Below, one piece after another: positions 20,061 through 59,150 of a stretch of DNA of 60,142 nt (within the stretch, counting starts at the first letter, position 1; the number at the start of each line of letters is the position of its first letter). Under the pieces are notes generated by a model. It was not told the DNA's origin. It did no database searches and saw only the letters and a program-made list of their open reading frames with translations. The position numbers were made by a program, and so were the translations under genes. Origin of the DNA: Candidatus Krumholzibacteriia bacterium (GTDB taxonomy: Bacteria > Krumholzibacteriota > Krumholzibacteriia > WVZY01 > JAKEHA01); NCBI GenBank assembly GCA_035687255.1, contig DASRYI010000344.1:1-60142 (forward strand). The letters run 5' to 3'.

Positions 20061-21341
20061 TCAGGTGTTCGTGCTCTGCATTCCGCGGGCGACTTCGGGA
20101 ATGATGCCTTTCTGTTCGTAGATCGGTCGCACCAGGCGGCGGATGACCGGCAGCCGGCGGATGAAGAACAGGGTGGCGAGTATGCAGGCACAGCCGCCGC
20201 CCAGGACGGTGTAGGGAGCACCGACGCGTGCGGCCACTGCGCCCGCGAGCAGACTTCCAAGCGGCGCCACGCCCAGTATCGCTGCCGCGTAGAAACTCAT
20301 GATGCGGCCGCGTTTGTCGTCGTGGACGATGGTCTGCAGGATGGTGTTGGCGGACGCGTTCTGCGCCATCATCCCGAATCCCACCACGAACAGCGCCGCC
20401 AGCGCCGGCACCAGCGAGCGGCAGAACGCAAACGCCATCAGCGCGGCGCCGAAAAGCAGGCCCGAGATGGCAATCACCCTTCCCAGGCCGCGAACGCTCC
20501 GGCGGGACGCGAGATACACCGCGCCGGCCAGCGCCCCCAGTCCCGACGCGCTGGCGAGGAACCCGTAGGTGTGCGCGCCGCCGTGCAGTACCTCGCGCGC
20601 GATCACCGGCAACAACACGGCGTACGGCAATCCCAACAGGCTGGCGGTGGCGACCAGCACCAGCAGGCCGCGGATCGGTTCGAAGCCCATTGCGTAGCTG
20701 AATCCCTCTCGAATTCCGCTCCACAGCGGCGCGTGCTGCGTGCGCCGCGGCAGCGGTGAAATGTGCATGGCCAGCAGGCTCACAATCACGGCGATATAGC
20801 TCACGCCATCGATGGCAAAGCACACGCCCTCACTCGCTGCGGCAATCAGTAGCCCCGCGACCATCGGTCCCACCAGGCGCGCGGAATTGAACATCATGGA
20901 GTTGATGGCGATGGCGTTGGGGAGATCGGCCGGCCCTTCCACCATCTGCACCGCGAAGGCCTGGCGCGCGGGCGTGTCGAAGGCGTTCACAATTCCCTGC
21001 AGCGTGTTCAGCACGATCAACTGTGGAACCGTGATCACTTTGGTCAGGGTGAGCGCCGCCAGCACGAACGACTGGACCATGGAGAGCACCTGCGTCACCA
21101 CCAGCACCCGGCGCAGGTTCCAGCGGTCGGCCAGCACGCCCCCCAGCGGAGAGAAGATCAGATTGGGCACCTGTCCCGCAAAATTCACGACACCCAGCAG
21201 CAGCGCTGACCCGGTCAGGCGGTACACCAGCCAGCTGGTGGCGACCCGGGTGATCCACGTGCCGATGAGCGATAACCCCTGTCCATAAAAGAACAAACGG
21301 TAGTTGCGGTGGGAGAGGGCACGCAGGAGCGGTAGGGCCAT
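20061..21341 (-). CDS. MFS transporter (EntS/MFS_3-like)
   Basis: Start at MALPLLRALSHRNYRLFFYGQGLSLIGTWI (ATG 21341). About 12 hydrophobic helices. The 102-codon upstream extension of the listed ORF is non-membrane and overlaps the divergent STAS gene. Confidence 0.8.
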   Translation of the reverse strand: MALPLLRALSHRNYRLFFYGQGLSLIGTWITRVATSWLVYRLTGSALLLGVVNFAGQVPNLIFSPLGGVLADRWNLRRVLVVTQVLSMVQSFVLAALTLTKVITVPQLIVLNTLQGIVNAFDTPARQAFAVQMVEGPADLPNAIAINSMMFNSARLVGPMVAGLLIAAASEGVCFAIDGVSYIAVIVSLLAMHISPLPRRTQHAPLWSGIREGFSYAMGFEPIRGLLVLVATASLLGLPYAVLLPVIAREVLHGGAHTYGFLASASGLGALAGAVYLASRRSVRGLGRVIAISGLLFGAALMAFAFCRSLVPALAALFVVGFGMMAQNASANTILQTIVHDDKRGRIMSFYAAAILGVAPLGSLLAGAVAARVGAPYTVLGGGCACILATLFFIRRLPVIRRLVRPIYEQKGIIPEVARGMQSTNT

Positions 21342-21450
21342 GGGCCCCAGTATCGAAAAGGTTCCAGCGTTTGCGCAAGCACGACCGCGTGCAACTTTTC
21401 GGGTGGTTTGTCCGTCTACTTTCCCAACGGCAGGCGAAAGGACGGGAGTC

Positions 21451-21840
21451 ATGATCACGGTAGACAGAAGCACGATCGGCGATGTGCACGTGCTCACACC
21501 CAGAAAGAACCTGGTGGGCGGCGACGAAACCCGGGTGCTCTCCGCAGCAGTCCAGGAACTCACCGGAAACTCGTCGGTGAAGGTGGTGCTGGACCTGGGC
21601 AGAATCAACTGGGTCAGCAGTCTCGGCATTGAGGAGCTGCGGCGCATTCATCGCATCTGTGCCAATCATCAGGGCTGGATGCGGCTGGCGTGTGTGGGTG
21701 AGCGCATCGAGAACATCATTCTGACGATGAGACTGGACTGGGTGTTCGATACGTTCGACACGGTGGAAGAGGCGGCGCTGGCGCCGGCGCGTGGTATGGA
21801 AGATGCGCCCCACGCCTGGAGGTTCGGGTCGGCTGTGTAG
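21451..21840 (+). CDS. STAS-domain protein (anti-sigma-factor antagonist-like)
   Basis: MITVDRSTIGDVHVLTPRKNLVGGDE...VVLDLGRINWVSSLGIEELRRI...ENIILTMRLDWVFDTFDTVEEA fits the SpoIIAA/STAS pattern. AAAGGACGGGAG precedes the ATG. Confidence 0.7.
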   Translation: MITVDRSTIGDVHVLTPRKNLVGGDETRVLSAAVQELTGNSSVKVVLDLGRINWVSSLGIEELRRIHRICANHQGWMRLACVGERIENIILTMRLDWVFDTFDTVEEAALAPARGMEDAPHAWRFGSAV

Positions 21841-22006
21841 CGCCACGTTCCGCAGCGCCCTTCCTCAGGCCGGATAGAGGATCACCCTTTCCGACACTGC
21901 GCGCACGGCCGGCCGCGTGCGCCGCGATCCGCAAGACAACTTCCTGTTGCATCCCGCCTGGATTGATAGCATCTTCATACCGTACCTCCCCTTGAGGACA
22001 GGATAG

Positions 22007-22522
22007 ATGCCGTTACCATTCTCCGGTCCCGTGCGATATTTCGCGTGGGGCTTTGTTGTATCCCTCGCCGTCGCAGTTTCCGTCGCGGCGAAATCTGAAG
22101 ATCCTTCCCAGACTCTCGACCCGATTGCGGCCGTCGCGGACACGTCGCTGGCACTCTCCGGCAAGGTGGTCTATGTGGACTTCTGGGCGTCGTGGTGCGG
22201 GCCCTGCCGCCAGTCGCTGCCGTGGCTCAACGGGCTGCTCCAGCGCTACGGCGACCGGGGATTCCGCCTGGTCACCGTGGATGTGGACCGCAAACCCGCC
22301 GCCGGACGGAAATTCCTCAAGGACCTCGGTGTATCATTTCCCGTCGTGTTCGATTCCACGGGCACGTTCGCGAAGAAGTATCAACTCCAGGCCATGCCCA
22401 CCTCCTTCATCTACGGGCGTGACGGTAAGCTGCGTGAACGCCGGGAGGGCTTCCACGAAGGCGAGGCGTACGGCGTGGAAGACCAGATCGAAGACCTTCT
22501 GCAGCAGAAGGGAGTGAAATGA
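22007..22522 (+). CDS. TlpA-family periplasmic thiol-disulfide oxidoreductase
   Basis: Signal anchor. Motifs VVYVDFWASWCGPCRQSLPWL (WCGPC) and YQLQAMPTSFIYGRDGKL. Confidence 0.85.
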   Translation: MPLPFSGPVRYFAWGFVVSLAVAVSVAAKSEDPSQTLDPIAAVADTSLALSGKVVYVDFWASWCGPCRQSLPWLNGLLQRYGDRGFRLVTVDVDRKPAAGRKFLKDLGVSFPVVFDSTGTFAKKYQLQAMPTSFIYGRDGKLRERREGFHEGEAYGVEDQIEDLLQQKGVK

Positions 22523-26855: not shown

Positions 26856-27953
26856 TCAGTACGCGTGCGCGGGGTGATAGCCGATGGTGTAGCTGGCCTG
26901 CGCCATGATGCGCTGGTCGTGCGGCTTGAAGCCGTTGCCGTCGTCGGCCTGCGCATAGCTGTACTCGAGGCGGATGTACGAGAATTCCGTCGGCGCCCAC
27001 TTGATGTTGGCCGACGCGCGCTTCACGTTGCCGGCGATGGGGTCGCCGGTGGCCGGGTCGACCAGGACGTCGGTGTAGCTGTCGAGCGCCTTTTCGACCT
27101 GCACACCGGTCCACCACACCTGCGAGAGCCGGTACTGAAACGACGCAAAGCCGCCGTGAGCCTGCCGGTGGTAGGTGCCGCCCACCGATGAATTTCTCTC
27201 CAGGTATTCGCCCGACAGAATCCACCCGCGCTGGTTCGACCGTCGCAGGGGAACGTTGCGAAACGTGAGGTCCGCTCCGATGGCGCCGTGGCGGTGGCCG
27301 TCGGCGCCCCGTCCCTGCAATCCCGACACACCGAATTCCATGGTGGTGCTCTCGTTCAGGTCGAACTGGTTTTTCAGGTGGCCGCCGTAGGGAATGTTGT
27401 TGTGGTTGTTGGAACCGAAATCGAGCGGGTTCTCGTCCGTCGCGTCGACGGCCTTGTAGACACCGCCGGTGAGCTCCATGTACCAGGGAACCGGTGTCAG
27501 CCAGGCAGCCTCCAGGCCCGAGTCCTTGAATCCCTCTTCACCGATGGTGTTGGCCATGATGACAGGCGCCTGGATGAACGGGTACGCGTGCGTGTGCAGC
27601 ATCCCCTGTTTTCCAAACATTCCCCGGATCTTTCCGAGTTTCAGCGAGATGTTGGGAATGCTGTTGGTGCGGACCCACACCTCCTCGGGGTCCACCTCGC
27701 CCGTTCCTGCGAAGACGATGTTCGATACCAGCGTCCAGGTCGGGTCGACCACGGAGATCAGGCTCATCTCCGCGTCATCGAAATTGATTCCGTAGGGCTG
27801 GTTCAGATTCGGCGCCGCCTGCGCCGAGACCAGGGCGTTGAGCCCGATCGACGGGTTGGCCAGATTGGAGAACATGGAGCGTGTTTGCGCCGGCGACAGC
27901 GCCGGAATGCACGCAAGGGAAACAAAAACAGCAATGAGTACGCGTGGTTTCAT
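26856..27953 (-). CDS. Putative outer-membrane beta-barrel (porin-like) protein of the metal-uptake operon
   Basis: Signal MKPRVLIAVFVSLACIPALSPAQT. Alternating beta-strand pattern. C-terminal ...ASYTIGYHPAHAY ends in an aromatic residue. Confidence 0.55.
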   Translation of the reverse strand: MKPRVLIAVFVSLACIPALSPAQTRSMFSNLANPSIGLNALVSAQAAPNLNQPYGINFDDAEMSLISVVDPTWTLVSNIVFAGTGEVDPEEVWVRTNSIPNISLKLGKIRGMFGKQGMLHTHAYPFIQAPVIMANTIGEEGFKDSGLEAAWLTPVPWYMELTGGVYKAVDATDENPLDFGSNNHNNIPYGGHLKNQFDLNESTTMEFGVSGLQGRGADGHRHGAIGADLTFRNVPLRRSNQRGWILSGEYLERNSSVGGTYHRQAHGGFASFQYRLSQVWWTGVQVEKALDSYTDVLVDPATGDPIAGNVKRASANIKWAPTEFSYIRLEYSYAQADDGNGFKPHDQRIMAQASYTIGYHPAHAY

Positions 27954-28012
27954 GCGTACACAACCTCCTGAATATGGTTAGAAAACAAGCGGCGGAAACA
28001 GGTCCGGTGTCT

Positions 28013-28309
28013 TCAGGCCACAGGAGGTGCGCGTTCGTTGCGGGTATGGACGGAGGGGTTGGAAACGAGTGCTTCGTCGGCGCAGAAGAGGCGTCCGATT
28101 GACGCCACCTGTGGGATGGGCTCGATCGGATTGTGTGCGCAGGTCACATGCGCCGTACTCAGCAGACAGGCCGCGCAGTGCGTGTTCTCGAGGATGTCGG
28201 AGTGGTGGTGGTGGAGAACCAGGAACGGGGCGGAGACGAACATCCCCACCGCCAGCAGCGCCAGAAACAGGCGCACCCGACTGAGGAAGGTATGTCTATC
28301 TTTGATCAT
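28013..28309 (-). CDS. Small membrane protein with HHHH and HCAAC motifs (possibly DUF2946-like, metal related)
   Basis: One TM helix LFLALLAVGMFVSAPFLVL followed by HHHHSD and THCAACLLSTAH. It is the first gene upstream of the metal-uptake operon. The family assignment is a weak pattern guess. Confidence 0.4.
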   Translation of the reverse strand: MIKDRHTFLSRVRLFLALLAVGMFVSAPFLVLHHHHSDILENTHCAACLLSTAHVTCAHNPIEPIPQVASIGRLFCADEALVSNPSVHTRNERAPPVA

Positions 28310-28316
28310 CCTGAGT

Positions 28317-28333
28317 TAACCTGATGCAGGTTA
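28317..28333. promoter_or_regulatory. Inverted repeat TAACCTG-ATG-CAGGTTA just upstream of the small His/Cys gene (possible metalloregulator operator or 5' hairpin)
   Basis: Perfect 7-bp arms, 8-24 nt upstream of ATG 28309 on the minus strand. Confidence 0.25.
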
Positions 28334-28637
28334 TACAGTTCTTCCCTCAAGAGCGACCCGCGGCGATCTTATAGCGGGAAAGGGAGGATTGCAAGGGCAA
28401 CCGCCCCGGAAACTGCACGCGTGCCCGGTTATACGCTCATGGGGAAGGGCTGTTCCTGAGTGATTTGGGGTGAGACCATGAATCGATCGAGCCACTGGAT
28501 GTTCAGACCAACACAAAAGCGTATGCGGCCATCCGCAGCGCGGCGCCCTTCTGGGCCGCAAATGCGAGTTCGTGTCAAGGCTTCAGTTTTCTTGAGAGCA
28601 ACCTTGCCCGCGCCGTTCTTTTGTCACCGGAGTCACC

Positions 28638-29558
28638 ATGATCAAGCCACTCAACATTGTGTTTGCCGCAGTCTTGACAATGACGTGTACAGGTACAGCA
28701 TGTGCAACGCAGTCCATGGGCAACCCCTATCGTTTCTATGATCCTCTCTTGTGGGCGCATCTGGTCGTGCGGGGAGAGGTTCTTAGCATCACTGAAGCGC
28801 CGTCCACAAGCGCTGAGTGGGGGATTCGGGTTGGTGGACAACCGTATCGGATAACGGTGGAGACGGTAGTTGTCCGAGTCAGCGAAGTGCTGAAGGGGCA
28901 GTACGTGGGGGGTGAGCTTCCCGTTGCCGTCTTTTCCGGTCGTCATTATCCGCAGCCCAATCCGATCAAGGTCGGGGATGAAGTTGTGCTCGCTGTGAAG
29001 CTGAACGGCGCAACCCATCGGTATTTGCTAGAAAACTACTCGGGTCTTCTTACTCGCCGCGGGACTGAGTGGCAACATCCGGATCCAGGTACCTATACCT
29101 ACATGGCTGACAAACGTGCGCTCTCCTGGCCTGAAGTAGAGGAGCGTGTCGCATCGATGTCGGCCCAAAACATTTCGGAGCAGGCAGACATCATTGTCAG
29201 TGGAACGTTGCGGTCCGTGTCCAACGATCATGAGGATCAAACAACGACGGCGAGCTGGAAGATGTCCGTGGACTCTGTCCTGAAGGGGAATCCCCCGCCA
29301 GGCATCGAGTTCTCAATGGCGTGGAAAGGCAAGCTGCCGGCCTGGGCGGTGCCAATTCCAATGCAGGCTTCCCCGGGACAAAAGTGGCTGGTGTTCTTGA
29401 GGCGTTCCGACGACAAGTATGTTCCATTTGCCGGGCTCAACGGAATGCTGAGAGAGGACGGGGAGCGTCTGATATATGACGATTCCGTTGAGTACCCACT
29501 TTCCCGAAAGGAAGTGTCGTCGATCGTAGAAAGCGCGAATCGTGCCCATCATGAGTAG
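28638..29558 (+). CDS. Secreted hypothetical protein in an AT-richer patch
   Basis: GGAG RBS. Signal MIKPLNIVFAAVLTMTCTGTACA. No recognisable family. Third-position composition is unlike the neighbouring genes. Confidence 0.5.
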   Translation: MIKPLNIVFAAVLTMTCTGTACATQSMGNPYRFYDPLLWAHLVVRGEVLSITEAPSTSAEWGIRVGGQPYRITVETVVVRVSEVLKGQYVGGELPVAVFSGRHYPQPNPIKVGDEVVLAVKLNGATHRYLLENYSGLLTRRGTEWQHPDPGTYTYMADKRALSWPEVEERVASMSAQNISEQADIIVSGTLRSVSNDHEDQTTTASWKMSVDSVLKGNPPPGIEFSMAWKGKLPAWAVPIPMQASPGQKWLVFLRRSDDKYVPFAGLNGMLREDGERLIYDDSVEYPLSRKEVSSIVESANRAHHE

Positions 29559-29673
29559 GAAGCTTGTCTTGGTGCCTGTGGTTGTTGGAACTCTGATAGC
29601 GTCTTCCTAGGCTGTTCGTGGAGGGAATCGAGCTGGACGGAGAGAAGGGAGTGGCTCGCCACCGGAGATAGAA

Positions 29674-29724
29674 ATTCCCGGCACCGAACAAGTCAGTACC
29701 GGGAATCTCAAGTGGTAGCGGGGG
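29674..29724 (+). repeat. Left copy of imperfect direct repeat: degenerate hairpin + last 12 nt of tRNA-fMet
   Basis: ATTCCCGGCACCGA-acaagtcagt-ACCGGGAATCT-caag-TGGTAGCGGGGG. The three capital blocks (14+11+12 nt) are identical to 33588-33641. Confidence 0.7.
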
Positions 29725-29787
29725 TGCGTGATGAGCAGCAAAAGATAGTTTTCCCACCTGTCGACATCATTGAGATAGGATCGTGTG

Positions 29788-30771
29788 ATGGACGATCACG
29801 TTCGCGAATACATCGCGAGAATCATGTCGCTGCTGCGAAAAGGGGCAGCGCGGGGCACGGCGACGAGCCATCCGTTGGACCTTCCCGGGGCCATCTTCTC
29901 AATCCTCACCAGCCGCGAATTCTGCTACCTGGGACGAACCCGGACCGAACCCTACCGGGAACGTACCGTTGCGGAAATCGCGAGGAATATTCAGGCGGGC
30001 GAACCGGTGCGTTTCTACTATGACATCGGCGCGGGCTATCACGCGAGCATCGATCCGTCCCGGTTCGGTCTCGTGTTCGGTGTCGGTTTCTCGGAGTTGT
30101 GCGTGCTGGCACAGGTTGCCTCATTCTGCAATCGCGTGGCTGAAATTCACGCTCCCGGTGCGCGCTTCATTCTTGTCATCGACAATGTGTGTGGTCTGAT
30201 GACGAACGATATCCCGCTCGAGAATACGAAAGCGTACTGCGCCGACCTGCGTGCGTTGATCGCACAGACGGGCACCGGTGACCGTGTCGACGTGCTGGTT
30301 GAATCCGAAGCGTTCTCTGTCTCGGAATACGGCATCGACCCGGCACGATTGCGCCGGGACATCGCAACGATCAATCCCTCGCCGGAGGATGTCGAGAATG
30401 TGGGTCGTTTTCTCGGGCGGCCGTGCGACGAAACCGAAGCCGTGGAGAGAATGGCCCGCTACCGCCAGGCCGGGGAGATGACCGAGGACCGGTTGGAGCG
30501 CGTGGTCTGCGGGGTTCGCATGACCCAGCGGGCAACCGGCGCAACGCTCGGATTCCGACCGTTCCCCGGGGGTGACTCGAGGACGCAGGTTGGCGAGCTC
30601 GGCATCACCTGCAATGCAAAGGGGAACCTTCGCCCGGTACTTCTCACCAGTCGGAACGTCCAGCGCTACCGGTGCACGCGTCTGGAGTATCCGGATCTCC
30701 TGCCCTCGACGATCCGATACGTGACCTTTGCCGAACCGGCGGACTCGCCGACGTCGCATCATGAAAAGTAG
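29788..30771 (+). CDS. Hypothetical enzyme; weak pattern resemblance to DIT1/PvcA-type (isonitrile-synthase family) proteins
   Basis: 327 aa. The block FYYDIGAGYHAS...GFSELCVLAQVASFCNRVAEIHAPGARFILVIDNVCGLMTNDIP...YCADLRALI loosely parallels the PvcA-family xPGAxIxIxSDGxVF region. This is unverified. Confidence 0.5.
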   Translation: MDDHVREYIARIMSLLRKGAARGTATSHPLDLPGAIFSILTSREFCYLGRTRTEPYRERTVAEIARNIQAGEPVRFYYDIGAGYHASIDPSRFGLVFGVGFSELCVLAQVASFCNRVAEIHAPGARFILVIDNVCGLMTNDIPLENTKAYCADLRALIAQTGTGDRVDVLVESEAFSVSEYGIDPARLRRDIATINPSPEDVENVGRFLGRPCDETEAVERMARYRQAGEMTEDRLERVVCGVRMTQRATGATLGFRPFPGGDSRTQVGELGITCNAKGNLRPVLLTSRNVQRYRCTRLEYPDLLPSTIRYVTFAEPADSPTSHHEK

Positions 30772-31664
30772 GCATACAGCCCCTCCGCCTGGTAACGGCG
30801 CATGCGCCGCAGACGCGCGTCATTCATGTGCCGCGACGCCCCGGTCGTCTTGTTGACGTCGAGCAGCACCGCCTCGCCGTCGTTGATCACGTAGTCGAGC
30901 TTCCCGTAGTCGAGCCCCAGCGACTTTCGCCATTCCACCACGCGATCGTCTGGCTCGATCGATTCGGTTCGAGCGTTGCGCTCCGCCTTCACGATCGGAT
31001 TCACCGTGCCGATGCGCGTGCACGTGGAGCGGTCGCCGAGAAACTGATAGACGCGCGTGTGGTAGAGCCCGTTTTCGATTTCGGGGCGAAACTTCTCGAC
31101 AATGACGTCGTGGTCGGCAAACCAGTGATCGGGGACATCGCCGATGCGGTCGAAGATCCGGTAGTCGCGCGGCCCCGAAAAGGGCAGTTTTCTGCGCCGG
31201 AGCCGGTCGATCCTCTTTCGGAAACGACGCAGGCCGTGGAGGCGGTGCTCCAGCGCGGTCATGCTCAGATAACGCTCGGGCACGCCGGCGTAGTTGAGAT
31301 CCGATTTCACGATCACGGGACCGTCCCAGGGGTCGCCCGGGCGAACCAGGTTGCGGCTGAAGGTTGATTTGCGGATGTCCCGGATTCTGGCGTTGAGCGC
31401 GATGGGGTATTGCGCGGCAAACTCCAGGTACTCCGAAGGGACGACGGAGAGGTTGACGTGGACGAGAACGACGTCGGCCTGCACGTGGCGGCGGATCCCG
31501 TAGACGTAGTCCACGTGGTGACCGTCTTCGCGCCAGCACTCGGCCAGGTGATGGACGATGTAATCGGACGGATCACGATGCCGGTCCCCTTCATGGAACA
31601 GGACCGCGATTCGCTGCAGGCGGGCGACGACCGCTGCCTCCGACGTTCCCGGTTGCTTTTTCAT
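30759..31664 (-). CDS. ATP-grasp-fold-like protein (hypothetical ligase)
   Basis: Motifs GPVIVKSDLNYAGVPE, YHTRVYQFLGDR and KLDYVINDGEAVLLDVNKTTG resemble ATP-grasp nucleotide and Mg-binding blocks. Its 3' end overlaps the convergent gene by 13 nt. Confidence 0.6.
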   Translation of the reverse strand: MKKQPGTSEAAVVARLQRIAVLFHEGDRHRDPSDYIVHHLAECWREDGHHVDYVYGIRRHVQADVVLVHVNLSVVPSEYLEFAAQYPIALNARIRDIRKSTFSRNLVRPGDPWDGPVIVKSDLNYAGVPERYLSMTALEHRLHGLRRFRKRIDRLRRRKLPFSGPRDYRIFDRIGDVPDHWFADHDVIVEKFRPEIENGLYHTRVYQFLGDRSTCTRIGTVNPIVKAERNARTESIEPDDRVVEWRKSLGLDYGKLDYVINDGEAVLLDVNKTTGASRHMNDARLRRMRRYQAEGLYAYFS

Positions 31665-31731
31665 CTATGACTTGATCTTAGCCGAGGGACGTGGTGTGGT
31701 ATACTAGTCCCGTACCTTATTCTCTGATTTT

Positions 31732-32520
31732 ATGTCGTTGCCTTCCCTGGTTGTGCTCAAGTTCGGTGGTTCCGTCCTGGACGGCGGGCAGGCCATCCCG
31801 CTTGCGGTGCGCGAGATATCCGGTCATCTGCAGAAACAGGAACGGGTTATCGCGGTCGTGTCGGCCTTCAAGAACCACACGGATGCGCTGGAGAAGCGGG
31901 CGCAGCACCTGTGCGAGCGGCCCGCACCCGACGCGTACGCCTTCTACGTCGGGCTGGGCGAGCTGTATGCCGCCGGGGAGCTCACGCTGGGGCTGCAGGG
32001 CAGCGGGATTCCAGCCACGATCCGTACGCCCTGGGATGTCTGGCTGTTCTCCGGGGGCGCACCCCTGAACGCCGTACCCGTGGCCCTGTCCCGCCACCGG
32101 TTTTTCGATGCTTTCCGGAACCACCGCGTCGTTGTGTTTCCAGGGTTTGTCGGTCGCGGCGGGGACGGTCGGCCCCATCTGCTCGGCCGCGGGGGCTCCG
32201 ACCTCACCGCAATCTTTCTGGCTGCCGAACTCGGTGCCGACCGGTGCGTCCTGCTCAAGGACACGGCGGGAATCTTCGAGTGGGATCCGGCCCGCGATGG
32301 ATCGCCACCGCGCCGCTATTCGAAATTGAGCTGGGAGGATGCCATCGTGCTGGGCAGCCCCGTACTCAAACCGGCACACGTGGAGTACGCGCGTTCGCGA
32401 CGCGTGACCATCGAAGTGACGGCGCCGGGAACATCGTACTCCACCATTGTCGGGGACGATGCATCGCAGTTCGCCGCTCAGCGCGAACCCGAACACCCGA
32501 AACCCGGACATCGCGAGTGA
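31732..32520 (+). CDS. Aspartokinase-like amino-acid kinase lacking ACT regulatory domains (262 aa)
   Basis: Motifs VVLKFGGSVL, VIAVVSAFKNHTDAL, GLGELYAAGELTLGLQGSGIPA, VVVFPGFVGRGGDGRPHLLGRGGSDLTAIFLAAELGADRCVLLKDTAGIFEWDP. The protein ends right after the kinase fold. Confidence 0.75.
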   Translation: MSLPSLVVLKFGGSVLDGGQAIPLAVREISGHLQKQERVIAVVSAFKNHTDALEKRAQHLCERPAPDAYAFYVGLGELYAAGELTLGLQGSGIPATIRTPWDVWLFSGGAPLNAVPVALSRHRFFDAFRNHRVVVFPGFVGRGGDGRPHLLGRGGSDLTAIFLAAELGADRCVLLKDTAGIFEWDPARDGSPPRRYSKLSWEDAIVLGSPVLKPAHVEYARSRRVTIEVTAPGTSYSTIVGDDASQFAAQREPEHPKPGHRE

Positions 32521-33557
32521 AGTGGAATTTCCCCGAACATCCCGTGGTCACCGTGGTCGGTTGTACCGGCGCGGTGGGACGAGAGCTCATTCGCCTGATC
32601 ACCGAACGAAAACCGGATTTCGGCAGGATCGATCTGATCGCGTCCGAGAATTCGGCGGGAAACACGCTGACGATCAACGGTGGCACGCGGGTCATTCAGC
32701 GGCTGGCCGACTACGATTTTGCGGGCTCGGACATCGCCTTTTTCGCCGTGGGCGGTGCGACCAGCGCGGAGTTTGTACCCCGGGCGGCGGCGGCCGGCTG
32801 CCTCGTTATCGACAAGTCGCCCGCGTTTCGCATGAAGGCCGACTGCCCGCTGATCGTCCCGGAGGTCAACGCCGGTGAAATGGCAGAAAGACCGGCGTCG
32901 AACATCATCGCCAGTCCCAACTGCTCTACGATTCCGCTGGTACGGGCACTTGCACCCCTGCACCGGGGCATCGGCGTGCGCAGCGTGGTGGTGGCCACGT
33001 ATCAGGCCGCCTCGGGTCTGGGACTCGCGAGCATCGACGATCTGCTGGATGACACGCGCGCGGTCCTGGCCGACACGCCGGGCGGAACCGCACGCTTTCC
33101 GCTGCCGCTCGCGTTCAACGTGGTTCCGCAGATCGACCTGTTCTGCACCGACGGGTTCACCATCGAAGAACGAAAACTCGTCATGGAGAGCCGGAAGATA
33201 CTCGGCGATCCCCATCTTGCCGTGACGGCAACCACCGTGCGGGTTCCGGTGATCAACGGGCATTCCGAGGCGGTATACATCCAGTGTGCGCGTCCGACGT
33301 CGCGCGCAGAGATCGTCGATGTTCTGCGTGCGACCCCGGGACTCGCCGTCGGCGACGGATTCGAACACTACACCACACCCCGGTTCATGCCCGATCCCAA
33401 TACGGTCTCGGTGGGACGAATTCGCCTCAATCCGGACGACCCCTGCGGTGTGTGGATGTGGCTGGTGGCGGACAACCTCCGACCCGGCGCCGCGCTCAAT
33501 GCGCTCGAGATCGCGGAGCTTGCGCTCGAGCGAAGCCGGGCGGCGGCCGCGTTGTAG
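32517..33557 (+). CDS. asd: Aspartate-semialdehyde dehydrogenase
   Basis: GTG 32517 overlaps the ask-like stop (GTGA). Motifs VVGCTGAVGRELIRLI, IIASPNCSTIPLVRAL, ATYQAASG, RVPVINGHSEAV, ADNLRPGAALNA. Confidence 0.9.
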   Translation: MKWNFPEHPVVTVVGCTGAVGRELIRLITERKPDFGRIDLIASENSAGNTLTINGGTRVIQRLADYDFAGSDIAFFAVGGATSAEFVPRAAAAGCLVIDKSPAFRMKADCPLIVPEVNAGEMAERPASNIIASPNCSTIPLVRALAPLHRGIGVRSVVVATYQAASGLGLASIDDLLDDTRAVLADTPGGTARFPLPLAFNVVPQIDLFCTDGFTIEERKLVMESRKILGDPHLAVTATTVRVPVINGHSEAVYIQCARPTSRAEIVDVLRATPGLAVGDGFEHYTTPRFMPDPNTVSVGRIRLNPDDPCGVWMWLVADNLRPGAALNALEIAELALERSRAAAAL

Positions 33558-33587
33558 CGCGACGCCCGGAACGGCCGGACAAAGAAG

Positions 33588-33629
33588 ATTCCCGGCACCG
33601 AGTTTGTCTCGACACCGGGAATCTTTTTT

Positions 33630-33641
<12 letters not shown>
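33588..33641 (+). repeat. Right copy of the direct repeat (terminator hairpin + 3' end of the intact tRNA-fMet)
   Basis: ATTCCCGGCACCGA-gtttgtctcgac-ACCGGGAATCT-ttttt-TGGTAGCGGGGG. Confidence 0.7.
33589..33630 (+). terminator. Rho-independent (probably bidirectional) terminator between asd and tRNA-fMet
   Basis: Stem TTCCCGG...CCGGGAA with inner CGAG/CTCG pairing, followed by TCTTTTTTT on the plus strand. It lies 31 nt after the asd stop. Confidence 0.65.
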
Positions 33642-33706
<65 letters not shown>

Positions 33707-58244: not shown

Positions 58245-59150
58245 ATGGAACGCGACAACGAAGAGCGCTTTGAGCAGCGTGAAGCGGGAAAACGCGCGAA
58301 GGAAAGACAGGGAGGCGCCGGTATCCGGAGCCTGGACCTGTATCTTCACGAGATCAACCGCACGCCCCTGCTGACGCGCGAACAGGAGCGCGATCTCGCC
58401 AGACGCATTCATGCCGGTGACAAAGCGGCGCTGGATCAGCTGGTGAAGGCCAATCTCCGATTCGTGGTGTCGATTGCCAAGCAGTACTCGAATCAGGGGC
58501 TGTCGCTCGAAGACCTGATCAACGAGGGAAACCTGGGCCTGATCAAGGCAGCGCATCGCTTCGACGAAGAACGTGGTTTCAAGTTCATCTCGTACGCTGT
58601 GTGGTGGATTCGCCAGGCCATGCTGCAGTCACTGGCCGAGCATTCGCGCATCGTCAGACTGCCGCTGAACCGGGCCGGCACGTTGTATCGTATCGGCAAG
58701 GTCTCGCGTCAGCTGGACCAGGAGCTCGGCCGTACGCCGAGCGCCGAAGAGATTGCGGCGCGGCTGAAGATCTCCACGCAGGAAGTCGAGGAGACGATGG
58801 TCATCTCGAACACGCACGTGTCGCTCGATGATCCGTACTCCGCCGACAAGGACGACACCGCCCTGGTCGACCACCTCACCGCGGAAGGACAGGAGTCACC
58901 CGACGAGGGCACGTATACGGCGGCGCTTTCGGATGACCTCGAACGCGCCCTGGGCACGCTCTCGGAGCGCGAGCGCCGGGTACTGGCCATGTATTTCGGC
59001 CTCGGGGGCGACGAGCCCATGACGCTCGAGGACATCGGCGGCAAACTCGGGCTGACGCGTGAGCGGATTCGCCAGATCAAGGAAAAGGCAATCCAGCGCC
59101 TGCGCCACTCCACACGCGCGCGCTTCCTTCAGGGCTACGTGGAAGGTTGA
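58245..59150 (+). CDS. Sigma-70 family sigma factor, short RpoD/group-1-2-like (301 aa)
   Basis: AGGAGG RBS. Motifs LYLHEINRTPLLTREQE, LVKANLRFVVSIAKQY, LEDLINEGNLGLIKAAHRFDEERGFKFISYAVWWIRQAM, RIVRLPLN. Region 4 is MTLEDIGGKLGLTRERIRQIKEKAIQRLR. Confidence 0.9.
   Translation: MERDNEERFEQREAGKRAKERQGGAGIRSLDLYLHEINRTPLLTREQERDLARRIHAGDKAALDQLVKANLRFVVSIAKQYSNQGLSLEDLINEGNLGLIKAAHRFDEERGFKFISYAVWWIRQAMLQSLAEHSRIVRLPLNRAGTLYRIGKVSRQLDQELGRTPSAEEIAARLKISTQEVEETMVISNTHVSLDDPYSADKDDTALVDHLTAEGQESPDEGTYTAALSDDLERALGTLSERERRVLAMYFGLGGDEPMTLEDIGGKLGLTRERIRQIKEKAIQRLRHSTRARFLQGYVEG

Follow-up and report, generated by a model that had tools for sequence, protein, structure and literature searches.

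A duplicated tRNA-fMet 3' end and predicted terminator bracket a lineage-resident four-gene module in a Krumholzibacteriia bacterium

Introduction

Integrase-mediated islands and prophages at tRNA and tmRNA genes (P4-like elements, insertions at ssrA) duplicate the 3' end of the gene, and identity between the copies stops inside the gene, as it does at the locus described here. Williams, in 2002, reportedly described integration sublocations at the acceptor-stem 3' end for some integrase families. KpGI-5, located at met56, a Met tRNA gene in Klebsiella pneumoniae, is an integrase-less island bracketed by a 46-bp repeat of the Met tRNA 3' end; it is 14 kb long, has a G+C content of 44% versus 57%, and its repeat is near-perfect (PMC3419637). 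CIMEs (cis-mobilizable elements) are decayed ICEs or IMEs that keep attL and attR (PMC5704250).

We analyzed a stretch of 60,142 nucleotides from a Candidatus Krumholzibacteriia bacterium (hereafter the window), in which an imperfect direct repeat containing the 3' end of tRNA-fMet brackets a 3.9-kb segment of four genes. Like KpGI-5, this segment lies immediately downstream of a Met tRNA at an insertion hotspot, has the tRNA 3' end repeated directly on either side of it and carries no integrase or mobility gene. In contrast to KpGI-5, its cargo matches the host in composition and has a syntenic counterpart in a sister clade, and its repeat is ~75-80% identical, with 12 nt that are not terminator. 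With CIMEs it shares a repeat-bracketed position at the 3' end of a target gene and the lack of integration and transfer genes of its own. By definition, however, a CIME descends from an ICE or IME and has functional att sites, whereas the window contains no such gene remnants, its cargo is vertically inherited and nothing observed marks its repeats as recombinase sites. Unlike integrase-mediated tRNA/tmRNA islands, the window has no integrase and its imperfect repeat reaches ~50 nt past the gene; moreover, another event at the same locus, in the relative L012, doubled hairpin sequence only.

Results

Gapped local alignment delimited the imperfect direct repeat (Table 1) slightly more widely than the preliminary description of this DNA had done. 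Three exact blocks of 14, 11 and 12 nt (ATTCCCGGCACCGA, ACCGGGAATCT and TGGTAGCGGGGG) keep their order in both copies, and each has exact matches only at the two repeat loci in the 60-kb window. The two regions align with a score of 46, which 0 of 2000 shuffles reached (shuffled maximum 30). Because the tRNA lies on the minus strand, its last 12 nt, CCCCCGCTACCA, read as TGGTAGCGGGGG on the plus strand; they run from the last T-stem base through the 7-nt 3' strand of the acceptor stem to the discriminator and CCA. Judged by textbook identity elements, the C1:U72 mismatch and the GGG/CCC anticodon stem of this tRNA presumably reflect an initiator identity. Beyond these 12 nt, neither an Rfam scan nor alignment detected tRNA similarity at the left copy. 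Read on the strand of the tRNA, each copy folds into a perfect hairpin that includes G.U pairs (in the left copy ATTCCCGGTACTGAC TTGT TCGGTGCCGGGAAT), and a T7 run on the plus strand (A7 on the tRNA strand) is present in the right copy only. These results bear out what had been described of the three-block repeat, of its last block as the final 12 nt of the tRNA (on which ARAGORN and Rfam agree), of an identity that ends where the tRNA body continues and of a left copy that keeps a stable hairpin without the T-tract. The duplication of the tRNA 3' end together with its downstream sequence is real.

Table 1 Position of the repeat copies, the bracketed genes and their neighbours in the window
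Feature	Position	Strand	Evidence and remarks
306-aa protein gene, just outside left repeat	28638..29558	+	atypical composition
Left (tRNA-distal) repeat copy	29661..29724	-	alignment and fold; orphan 12-mer, non-native spacer, hairpin, U-rich tail
Left-copy hairpin, 16-17 bp	29674-29708		fold -32.3 kcal/mol, z -6.1 on minus strand
Left-copy orphan 12 nt, identical to tRNA-fMet 3' end	29713-29724		
Predicted PvcA/IsnA-fold (isonitrile-synthase-like) enzyme, first module gene	29785..30771	+	AF2 and Foldseek
Predicted ATP-grasp-fold enzyme	30759..31664	-	AF2 and Foldseek; convergent with first gene, 13-nt overlap
ACT-less aspartokinase of 262 aa, reduced to the catalytic domain	31732..32520	+	PF00696, 1e-28
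Aspartate-semialdehyde dehydrogenase (Asd)	32517..33557	+	TIGR01296, 335 bits (cut-off 324); NF011456, 362 bits
Right (tRNA-proximal) repeat copy	33575..33641	-	true tRNA-fMet 3' end, A7 spacer, hairpin, tail
Right-copy hairpin	33587-33623		fold -28.0 kcal/mol, z -5.1 on tRNA strand
tRNA-Met(CAT), intact, initiator-type features	33630..33706	-	ARAGORN; Rfam RF00005, 65.5 bits

The tRNA-fMet gene is found downstream of eno-ftsB on the same strand. This eno/ftsB/tRNA order is kept in six relatives (L009, L012, L013, L014, L018 and L019), and each relative has a single tRNA-fMet copy within 10 kb. A hairpin occupies the orthologous position after tRNA-fMet in the six relatives; its outer 8 bp are unchanged in 8/8 copies and three inner pairs vary compensatorily. 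A stable hairpin, a U-rich tail directly after the tRNA 3' end, an orthologous position and covariation are the marks of an intrinsic terminator, and we predict that in this Krumholzibacteria-like lineage the hairpin natively terminates tRNA-fMet transcription. In the right copy, a terminator-like site on the plus strand (33607-33620) is followed by a T run, and this copy, lying between asd (+) and the tRNA (-), probably terminates transcription in both directions. It resembles rho-independent bidirectional terminators in its GC-rich hairpin, its U-rich runs on both strands, its position between convergent genes, its positional conservation and its covariation. Ordinary terminators, however, are not normally duplicated around gene blocks as this one is, and they rarely keep an invariant 8-bp outer stem across lineages whose core proteins are ~77-79% identical.

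Over 64-67 nt, of which all but 12 are terminator, the two repeat copies are ~75-80% identical. The left copy is ~75-79% identical to every other terminator copy, the right copy included. The right copy agrees with the orthologous terminators in L014 and L019 at 38-39/42 positions, versus just 30/37 positions, plus 14 gap columns, when it is compared with the left copy. Since the right copy is closer to these orthologues, which form clade B, than to its partner, the two are not recent duplicates of one another. Such a divergence would follow if one of them had been brought in by other DNA. Inner stems of the terminator change fast even within a clade, as L009 and L013 are identical at 34/38 positions with 12 gap columns. 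Apart from the orthologous tRNA terminators and a partial copy in L012, neither the window nor ~190 kb of related loci yielded a third copy. This holds for the far edge of the 306-aa gene region, the sequence after a relocated STAS gene (21840-22007) and the ApbE/ABC-3 junction, where a third copy was specifically sought.

All four bracketed genes are metabolic and no ICE or IME remnants were found among them. The preliminary description had called the first an orphan enzyme. Its product matches the Pfam DIT1_PvcA model with an E-value of 0.002 and 17.9 bits, under the 26.4-bit cut-off, and the AF2 model (pLDDT 92) retrieves PIsnA (9dhm) and PvcA (3e59) with Foldseek (E 1e-10, TM 0.64-0.69), which suggests that the protein belongs to the PvcA/IsnA fold rather than being an orphan. 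None of its 374 homologues bears a functional name. In known PvcA/IsnA clusters a partner Fe(II)/2-oxoglutarate dioxygenase of the PvcB/IsnB type is encoded alongside. No such gene lies beside the PvcA-like gene, whose neighbours encode the ATP-grasp enzyme, the aspartokinase and Asd; in L019 a P5CR-like gene and the gene of a 493-aa protein without Pfam match are further neighbours. The second protein has neither a Pfam match nor a PDB sequence match. Its AF2 model (pLDDT 92) retrieves D-Ala-D-Ala ligase, LysX/ArgX and RimK with Foldseek (E 1e-7), and among the best 120 of its 978 homologues all names shown are 'hypothetical protein'. The aspartokinase covers ~3-238 of the 407-aa aspartate kinase models and falls under their full-length cut-offs. 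The GTG start of asd overlaps the aspartokinase stop (GTGA). The earlier calls of an ATP-grasp fold, as far as the model goes, of an aspartokinase without ACT and of asd, which passes the TIGR01296 cut-off, were all correct. A literature search for this four-gene combination returned nothing. Taken together, the bracketed genes define a widespread, unnamed module of a PvcA/IsnA-fold enzyme, an ATP-grasp enzyme, an aspartokinase devoid of its feedback domain and Asd.

In L014 and L019 the four genes, with their order and orientation kept, adjoin the same tRNA-fMet/ftsB/eno genes with one STAS gene between. Both relatives have one copy each of the 12-mer and hairpin and no repeat. The module proteins of the window and L019 are 67-79% identical, and the flanking core proteins 69-89%. 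Module GC3 is 0.73-0.81 (window 0.79 +/- 0.045) and the tetranucleotide z stays < 1 over the module. Because of this synteny, core-like divergence and host-typical GC3, the module is not recently acquired foreign DNA, and the four genes are long-term residents of the tRNA-fMet locus rather than a newly arrived island. The compositionally odd DNA of the region is instead the 306-aa gene outside the left repeat, with a GC of 0.556 and a GC3 of 0.619 (3.8 sd under the window mean); tetranucleotide distance is highest over 26-30.8 kb. This gene has no Pfam match and no homologue in any related locus, and in JGI metagenomes it matched only the identical contig (L007) and one weak sequence. The other left-flank genes, ABC-3, ZnuA and a porin-like gene, have no counterpart in the related loci either. 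Gene content downstream of tRNA-fMet differs among all clades examined, and the module is absent at the tRNA in L009, L013 and L018.

Comparison of L012 with L009 revealed an insertion at the same hairpin. At 93% identity, the two are collinear throughout apart from 9,567 nt in L012 (10664-20230), and positions 10640-10664 of L009 align to both edges of this extra block, giving a 25-nt repeat (24/25 identical). L009 is therefore the empty site and L012 a clean 9.6-kb occupied site at the terminator. The empty state is ancestral in their clade, as L013 and L018 show it too. No recombinase is encoded in the L012 insert. Its repeat spans the hairpin loop, the 3' arm and TTT, with no tRNA sequence duplicated, and the hairpin 3' arm is the sole part duplicated in both the window and L012 events; the repeat edges differ, lying 12 nt into the tRNA in the window and in the hairpin loop in L012. 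A possible T-arm remnant of the tRNA upstream of the distal L012 copy was rejected, since 76% of shuffles score as high and it overlaps a LysR stop codon. The L012/L009 pair establishes that the locus is a real insertion hotspot, as had been supposed.

No integrase, recombinase or transposase gave a Pfam match in the module or in the ORFs scanned across the 60-kb window, in agreement with the preliminary description. Its suggestion of a decayed island fares less well. The right repeat begins ~18 nt after the asd stop and the first module gene starts ~60 nt from the left 12-mer, so that no decayed integrase can hide in the segment, and no gene remnant was seen. The left 12-mer lies at most ~23 nt from the onset of homology to the upstream region of the L006 module. 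A 12-mer look-alike in L006, GTAGCGGGG, ahead of the gene start, aligns to the ribosome-binding region and was treated as chance.

An exact empty site, in which the 306-aa gene, the terminator and the tRNA follow one another, was not found, and no relative examined shares the left flank of the window. The same-species contigs L005, L007 and X1/X2 all carry the occupied form. Sequencing-run searches with three stretches led to one soil sample, as assembled contigs, in which rare variants cannot show, and gave no joint skipping from 29.7 to 33.6 kb and no alternative junctions. Among 2.9 million viral and proviral contigs, none matched the 12-mer plus hairpin or the first cargo gene. A search of species-representative genomes with FtsB gave one distant relative (61% identical) with no tRNA at the locus, which is uninformative, and exact look-up of the window enolase gave no record. 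No circular form of the segment was observed.

Discussion

These data separate a real signal, the duplicated tRNA end, from the default inference of a mobile island. Because a tRNA-3'-end repeat can bracket old residents, island predictors based on repeats would mis-call this segment. The data also provide, in a barely studied uncultured phylum, a clean occupied/empty pair at a terminator hairpin whose insert has no recombinase, and from the L012/L009 pair one can begin to ask how DNA without an integrase gets into hotspots near tRNA genes.

We give an even chance to the reading that one crossover within the terminator re-inserted a lineage-resident module and left the repeat as its scar. The two copies would be diverged homologues, each made of the last 12 nt of tRNA-fMet and the lineage-conserved terminator hairpin. 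One reciprocal, Campbell-type crossover between the chromosomal terminator and a homologous copy on incoming, presumably circular, DNA would leave them bracketing the 3.9-kb segment. The exchange most likely took place in the hairpin 3' arm, at the 14-nt block TCGGTGCCGGGAAT (tRNA strand), which the two copies share without a difference. What came in would have been a copy of the module already kept beside this tRNA by the lineage, not a foreign integrase-bearing island; as the lineage already has the module there, the event would either have re-inserted it or exchanged it between relatives at a hotspot of rearrangement. Candidate agents are an integrase acting in trans, host recombination between short homologous stretches or palindrome processing. 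This reading is consistent with a repeat that is non-random, unique to the locus and tight around the module, with a hairpin that is the orthologous tRNA-fMet terminator of six relatives, with the divergence of the copies and with a gene content beyond the tRNA that varies by clade. It also fits the independent L012 insertion, which formed a repeat at the same hairpin and doubled, of the parts duplicated in the window, only the 3' arm. Several observations count against it. The compositionally foreign side is the 306-aa gene region and not the module, the contigs of the species are all occupied, and neither a circular form nor a recombinase was observed. The identity, in blocks of 14-25 nt, is short for recombination that depends on RecA, and the different repeat boundaries of the window and L012 argue against one recombinase with a fixed core. 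Moreover, as L014 and L019 hold the module at the same tRNA without a repeat, it could be ancestral here and the left copy could have arrived with the DNA on its other side.

This last point is developed in an explanation that we regard as possible though doubtful, in which the module is ancestral beside the tRNA as in clade B and the left copy is a remnant of a second tRNA-fMet flank. ABC-3, ZnuA, the porin-like gene, the 306-aa gene, a terminator and 12 nt of tRNA 3' end would come from a second locus, either a paralogue in the same genome or that of a related donor, joined upstream of the PvcA-like gene by deletion or by an illegitimate, homology-facilitated join with its breakpoint 12 nt inside that tRNA. 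It accommodates the repeat-less synteny and core-like divergence of the module, the host-typical GC3 of the module beside the atypical GC3 (0.619) and tetranucleotide usage of the 306-aa region, and left-flank genes without counterpart in related loci. The left copy is no closer to one orthologous terminator than to another, which would suit a paralogue or xenologue, and its intact 12-mer and outer stem are those expected of a tRNA gene that worked until recently. However, no second tRNA-fMet locus was seen within 10 kb in the relatives, the breakpoint must fall by chance just upstream of the module promoter region, and the insertion-with-repeat behaviour of the L012 terminator plays no part.

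The conserved terminator hairpin of this lineage could itself be a recombination site, an attB-like palindrome at which integrase-less gene blocks enter or are exchanged through host or trans-acting activity. Each event would double the 3' arm, and the 3.9-kb module and the 9.6-kb block of L012 would be two independent products; we consider this unlikely.

We find quite improbable the classical interpretation, that of the preliminary description, in which an integrase element entered at the tRNA-fMet 3' end, left attL/attR repeats and had its integrase lost or encoded elsewhere, as in a CIME. The repeat that takes in the tRNA 3' end and stops inside the gene and the insertion hotspot stand, and both an integrase-less precedent, KpGI-5 (PMC3419637), and the CIME concept (PMC5704250) are published. 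The foreign cargo and the integrase do not stand. The cargo is host-like in composition, divergence and synteny, the same four genes lie at this tRNA in relatives without the repeat, an observation that the preliminary description had itself named as refuting, and the Pfam scans of the window ORFs gave no integrase, recombinase or transposase, with no space for a remnant between repeats and cargo. The repeat, imperfect as it is, is mostly terminator rather than tRNA, and the viral and proviral contigs hold neither the 12-mer plus hairpin nor the first cargo gene.

Tandem duplication of a stretch spanning the module, the terminator and 12 nt of tRNA, followed by loss of one module and divergence in place of the terminator and 12-mer left behind, would account for the direct orientation and for a native module, and the fast evolution of terminator inner stems favours it. 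It is nevertheless very improbable. It requires a precise second deletion and an orphan 12-mer and outer stem that stayed perfect while at least 12 other positions changed, and the right copy is nearer to the terminators of other clades than to the left copy. A target-site duplication by a transposase was rejected, a repeat of 25-67 nt being far too long and the window copies too diverged for a fresh duplication. Finally, practically no credence can be given to chance similarity or a dispersed REP-like hairpin, which has nothing in its favour beyond the hairpin being a palindrome: the alignment score exceeds all 2000 shuffles, third-place matches in the window score at best 24-30 against a shuffled-null maximum of 27, and the hairpin plus 12-mer occurs twice in 60 kb and, in relatives, only at the tRNA-fMet terminator and the L012 junction.

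The repeat consists of the end of tRNA-fMet and its terminator

The direct repeat reported in the preliminary description (29674-29724 and 33588-33641) is real: ATTCCCGGCACCGA, ACCGGGAATCT and TGGTAGCGGGGG are present in both copies, in the same order on the + strand, and exact matches to the three blocks occur at these two places only within the window. The chance expectation per block in the window is 0.3-1.1, even with mismatches allowed. Computational alignment of the copies gave slightly wider limits (see table). The only tRNA gene of the window, tRNA-Met(CAT), has a C1:U72 mismatch and a GGG/CCC anticodon stem, as read from the sequence, textbook identity elements by which we take it to be the initiator tRNA. 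The 12-mer of the repeat is the reverse complement of its final 12 nt, CCCCCGCTACCA. Tested for tRNA similarity, the left copy showed none past the 12-mer.

Features of the tRNA-fMet locus in the window and in related loci (L-numbers)
Feature	Locus	Position	Strand	Remarks
MFS/STAS pair	window	20061-21840		
Different hairpin following MFS/STAS	window	~21898-21925		
306-aa gene and preceding non-coding stretch	window	~27950-29660		GC 0.55-0.59
306-aa gene	window	28638-29558		GC3 0.619 (-3.8 sd)
Left copy	window	29661-29724		
Left-copy hairpin	window	29674-29708		-32.3 kcal/mol (z -6.1)
Four-gene block	window	29785-33557		
PvcA/IsnA-fold enzyme	window	29785-30771	+	AF2 pLDDT 92; PIsnA and PvcA matches, E 1e-10, TM 0.64-0.69
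3' overlap, 13 nt	window	30759-30771		PvcA-like and ATP-grasp genes
ATP-grasp fold	window	30759-31664	-	D-Ala-D-Ala ligase, LysX and RimK structure matches, E 1e-7
Aspartokinase catalytic domain, without ACT region	window	31732-32520	+	
Asd	window	32517-33557	+	
Right copy	window	33575-33641		
Right-copy hairpin	window	33587-33623		-28.0 kcal/mol (z -5.1)
tRNA-Met(CAT)	window	33630-33706	-	
Similarity to RpoD-like sigma gene of L012 insert	window	58325-59131		78% DNA identity
Four-gene block	L003	8001-12109		
Four-gene block	L019	10001-13725		
P5CR-like reductase and 493-aa gene, upstream of four-gene block	L019	7645-9950		reductase 275 aa
P5CR-like reductase and 493-aa gene, upstream of four-gene block	L014	12371-13582		reductase 275 aa
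MFS/STAS pair	L009	10664-12464		
Segment aligning on both sides of L012 insert	L009	10640-10664		
Inserted block	L012	10664-20230		9,567 nt
Extra gene	L018	7672-8202		176 aa

On the strand of the tRNA each copy runs from the 12-mer through a short spacer into a 16-17-bp hairpin followed by a U-rich tail. Pairing is perfect in either hairpin on this strand, G.U pairs included; on the + strand there are internal mismatches. Six related loci (L009, L012, L013, L014, L018 and L019) were recovered via homologues of FtsB and of the module. In all six the genes run ECF sigma, eno, ftsB, tRNA-fMet, and in 6/6 a hairpin built in the same way comes immediately after tRNA-fMet. When the window's two copies were aligned with those of the six relatives, the outer 8 bp (ATTCCCGG/CCGGGAAT) were invariant in 8/8 copies, and at three inner stem pairs both sides had changed with pairing kept. 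The orthologous position, the invariant outer stem and the compensatory inner pairs indicate that the hairpin is the native, lineage-conserved terminator of tRNA-fMet. A dispersed REP-like element is ruled out, as there is no third copy in the window and the relatives have the hairpin only at tRNA-fMet. In the window the terminator is predicted to end asd as well, on the opposite strand, via a T7 run.

Concatenated core proteins fall into three groups with a mutual identity of ~77-79%: clade A (L009, L012, L013 and L018), clade B (L014 and L019) and the window alone. The names on homologues point to soil Candidatus Krumholzibacteria. The 8-bp outer stem is unchanged across clades whose core proteins are just this similar; such conservation goes beyond the need of a plain terminator, so the stem may serve in processing or binding.

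The four-gene block is resident

Considering synteny, divergence, composition, mobility genes and a phage search, we conclude that the four-gene block is not an island. It recurs in L002, L003, L004, L014 and L019. In both clade B loci the order is P5CR-like gene, 493-aa gene, the four genes, STAS, terminator, tRNA-fMet, ftsB and eno, with the four genes oriented as in the window and with one 12-mer and one hairpin per locus. L014 and L019 thus carry the four genes beside the same tRNA without the repeat, an observation that the preliminary description had itself named as refuting the island it proposed. Between the window and L019 protein identity is 67.5% for the PvcA-like enzyme, 72% for the ATP-grasp enzyme, 68% for the aspartokinase and 79% for Asd, as compared with 78% for FtsB, 89% for enolase and 69-74% for the other neighbouring core proteins; the module has diverged in step with the core genes.

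GC3 of the module is 0.73-0.81; over 38 of the window's genes it is 0.79 +/- 0.045. The GC3 outlier is the 306-aa gene immediately left of the left repeat, and tetranucleotide distance peaks over 26-30.8 kb (z 2.2-2.5), an interval that includes this gene and the non-coding DNA before it. This gene has no Pfam match and no homologue in the relatives; together with the non-coding stretch preceding it, it probably represents the region's genuinely foreign DNA. The ORFs scanned across the window contain no integrase, recombinase or transposase domain, and the gaps between repeat and cargo are too short for a hidden gene remnant. Among the viral and proviral contigs searched, none had the 12-mer plus hairpin and none had the first cargo gene.

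DNA has entered the terminator in a related genome

The locus is a hotspot of insertion and rearrangement: the right side of tRNA-fMet is collinear in all loci, and the left side is different everywhere. L012 and L009 are 93% identical and collinear apart from a block inserted at the terminator of L012, bordered by a direct repeat of 25 nt, TGAAG[A/C]GATTCAGCGCCGGGAATTT (24/25 identical), that spans the loop, the 3' arm and TTT. From L013 and L018 it follows that clade A was ancestrally empty at this site. The insert encodes three T9SS-type secreted proteins, an RpoD-like sigma factor, a LysR regulator and small ORFs; a search of it for a recombinase found none. This occupied and empty pair indicates that DNA entered the terminator at least once recently, and that entry left a terminator repeat and no integrase.

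Next to the tRNA terminator there is an MFS/STAS pair in clade A and only STAS in clade B. The window has the pair 12 kb off, beyond an AhpC-DUF4266-DUF3570-ApbE block, a block transposition with its breakpoint at the terminator. The extra gene of L018, which has no Pfam match, lies between the tRNA terminator and STAS and is not in L013; no repeat was detected around it.

Origin of the second terminator copy

The right copy matches the orthologous terminators of clade B at 38-39/42 positions and the left copy at only 30/37, with 14 gap columns. Identity of the left copy to each of the other copies is ~75-79%. The right copy being nearer to the clade B terminators than to the left copy, the two are not a fresh duplication; one came in already diverged, or else diverged under the constraints that shape the orthologues. 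The differences are concentrated in the spacer, inner stem and loop. The copies agree fully in the 12-mer, in the outer stem and in 14 nt of the 3' arm that read TCGGTGCCGGGAAT on the strand of the tRNA. The 3' arm is the only part also duplicated in L012.

Our preferred explanation, to which we give about an even chance, is a Campbell-type single crossover within the tRNA-fMet terminator. It would join the chromosomal site to a homologous terminator copy on incoming DNA carrying the lineage's own four-gene module. It would amount to an integrase-less re-insertion of this module at the hotspot, or to an exchange there between relatives. The main rival, rather unlikely but to be taken seriously, is that the module never moved and that the left copy is what remains of a different tRNA-fMet flank, arrived with the compositionally foreign 306-aa block, which does adjoin that copy. 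The window's left flank was found in no relative examined, and same-species contigs of other datasets (L005, L007 and X1/X2) all have the occupied structure. A classical decayed island, suggested by a tRNA-derived repeat around DNA with no integrase, is improbable for cargo that clade B holds at the same tRNA. We regard as highly improbable a tandem duplication followed by loss. Chance can practically be dismissed, the copies aligning with a gapped local score of 46 against at most 30 in 2000 shuffles of the left region.

In the literature the closest case is KpGI-5 (PMC3419637), which lies at a Met tRNA gene and has a 46-bp repeat and no integrase; its cargo, however, is clearly foreign, whereas that of the bracketed segment is resident. 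CIMEs are conceptually close to this segment, but what defines them is their derivation from ICEs or IMEs (PMC5704250). The scar is of a known type; what sets it apart is the resident cargo and a repeat that is mostly terminator. On the basis of two events, the conserved hairpin itself could possibly be a recombination site for integrase-less blocks.

The four bracketed genes

The score of the PvcA/IsnA-fold enzyme for Pfam DIT1_PvcA is under the cut-off of that family, and the ATP-grasp protein has no sequence-family match. No PvcB-type dioxygenase was found beside the block. Hundreds of unnamed homologues of the block exist in Krumholzibacteria, Gemmatimonadales and some Gammaproteobacteria. 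It has the look of a small biosynthetic cluster, as yet uncharacterised, that uses aspartate semialdehyde. The P5CR-like and 493-aa proteins of clade B, the latter without a Pfam match and encoded directly before the four genes, have no homologue in the window and may belong to the same pathway. The PvcA-like and ATP-grasp genes are convergent and overlap at their 3' ends in the window, and the gene calls for L003, L005 and L019 show a comparable overlap.
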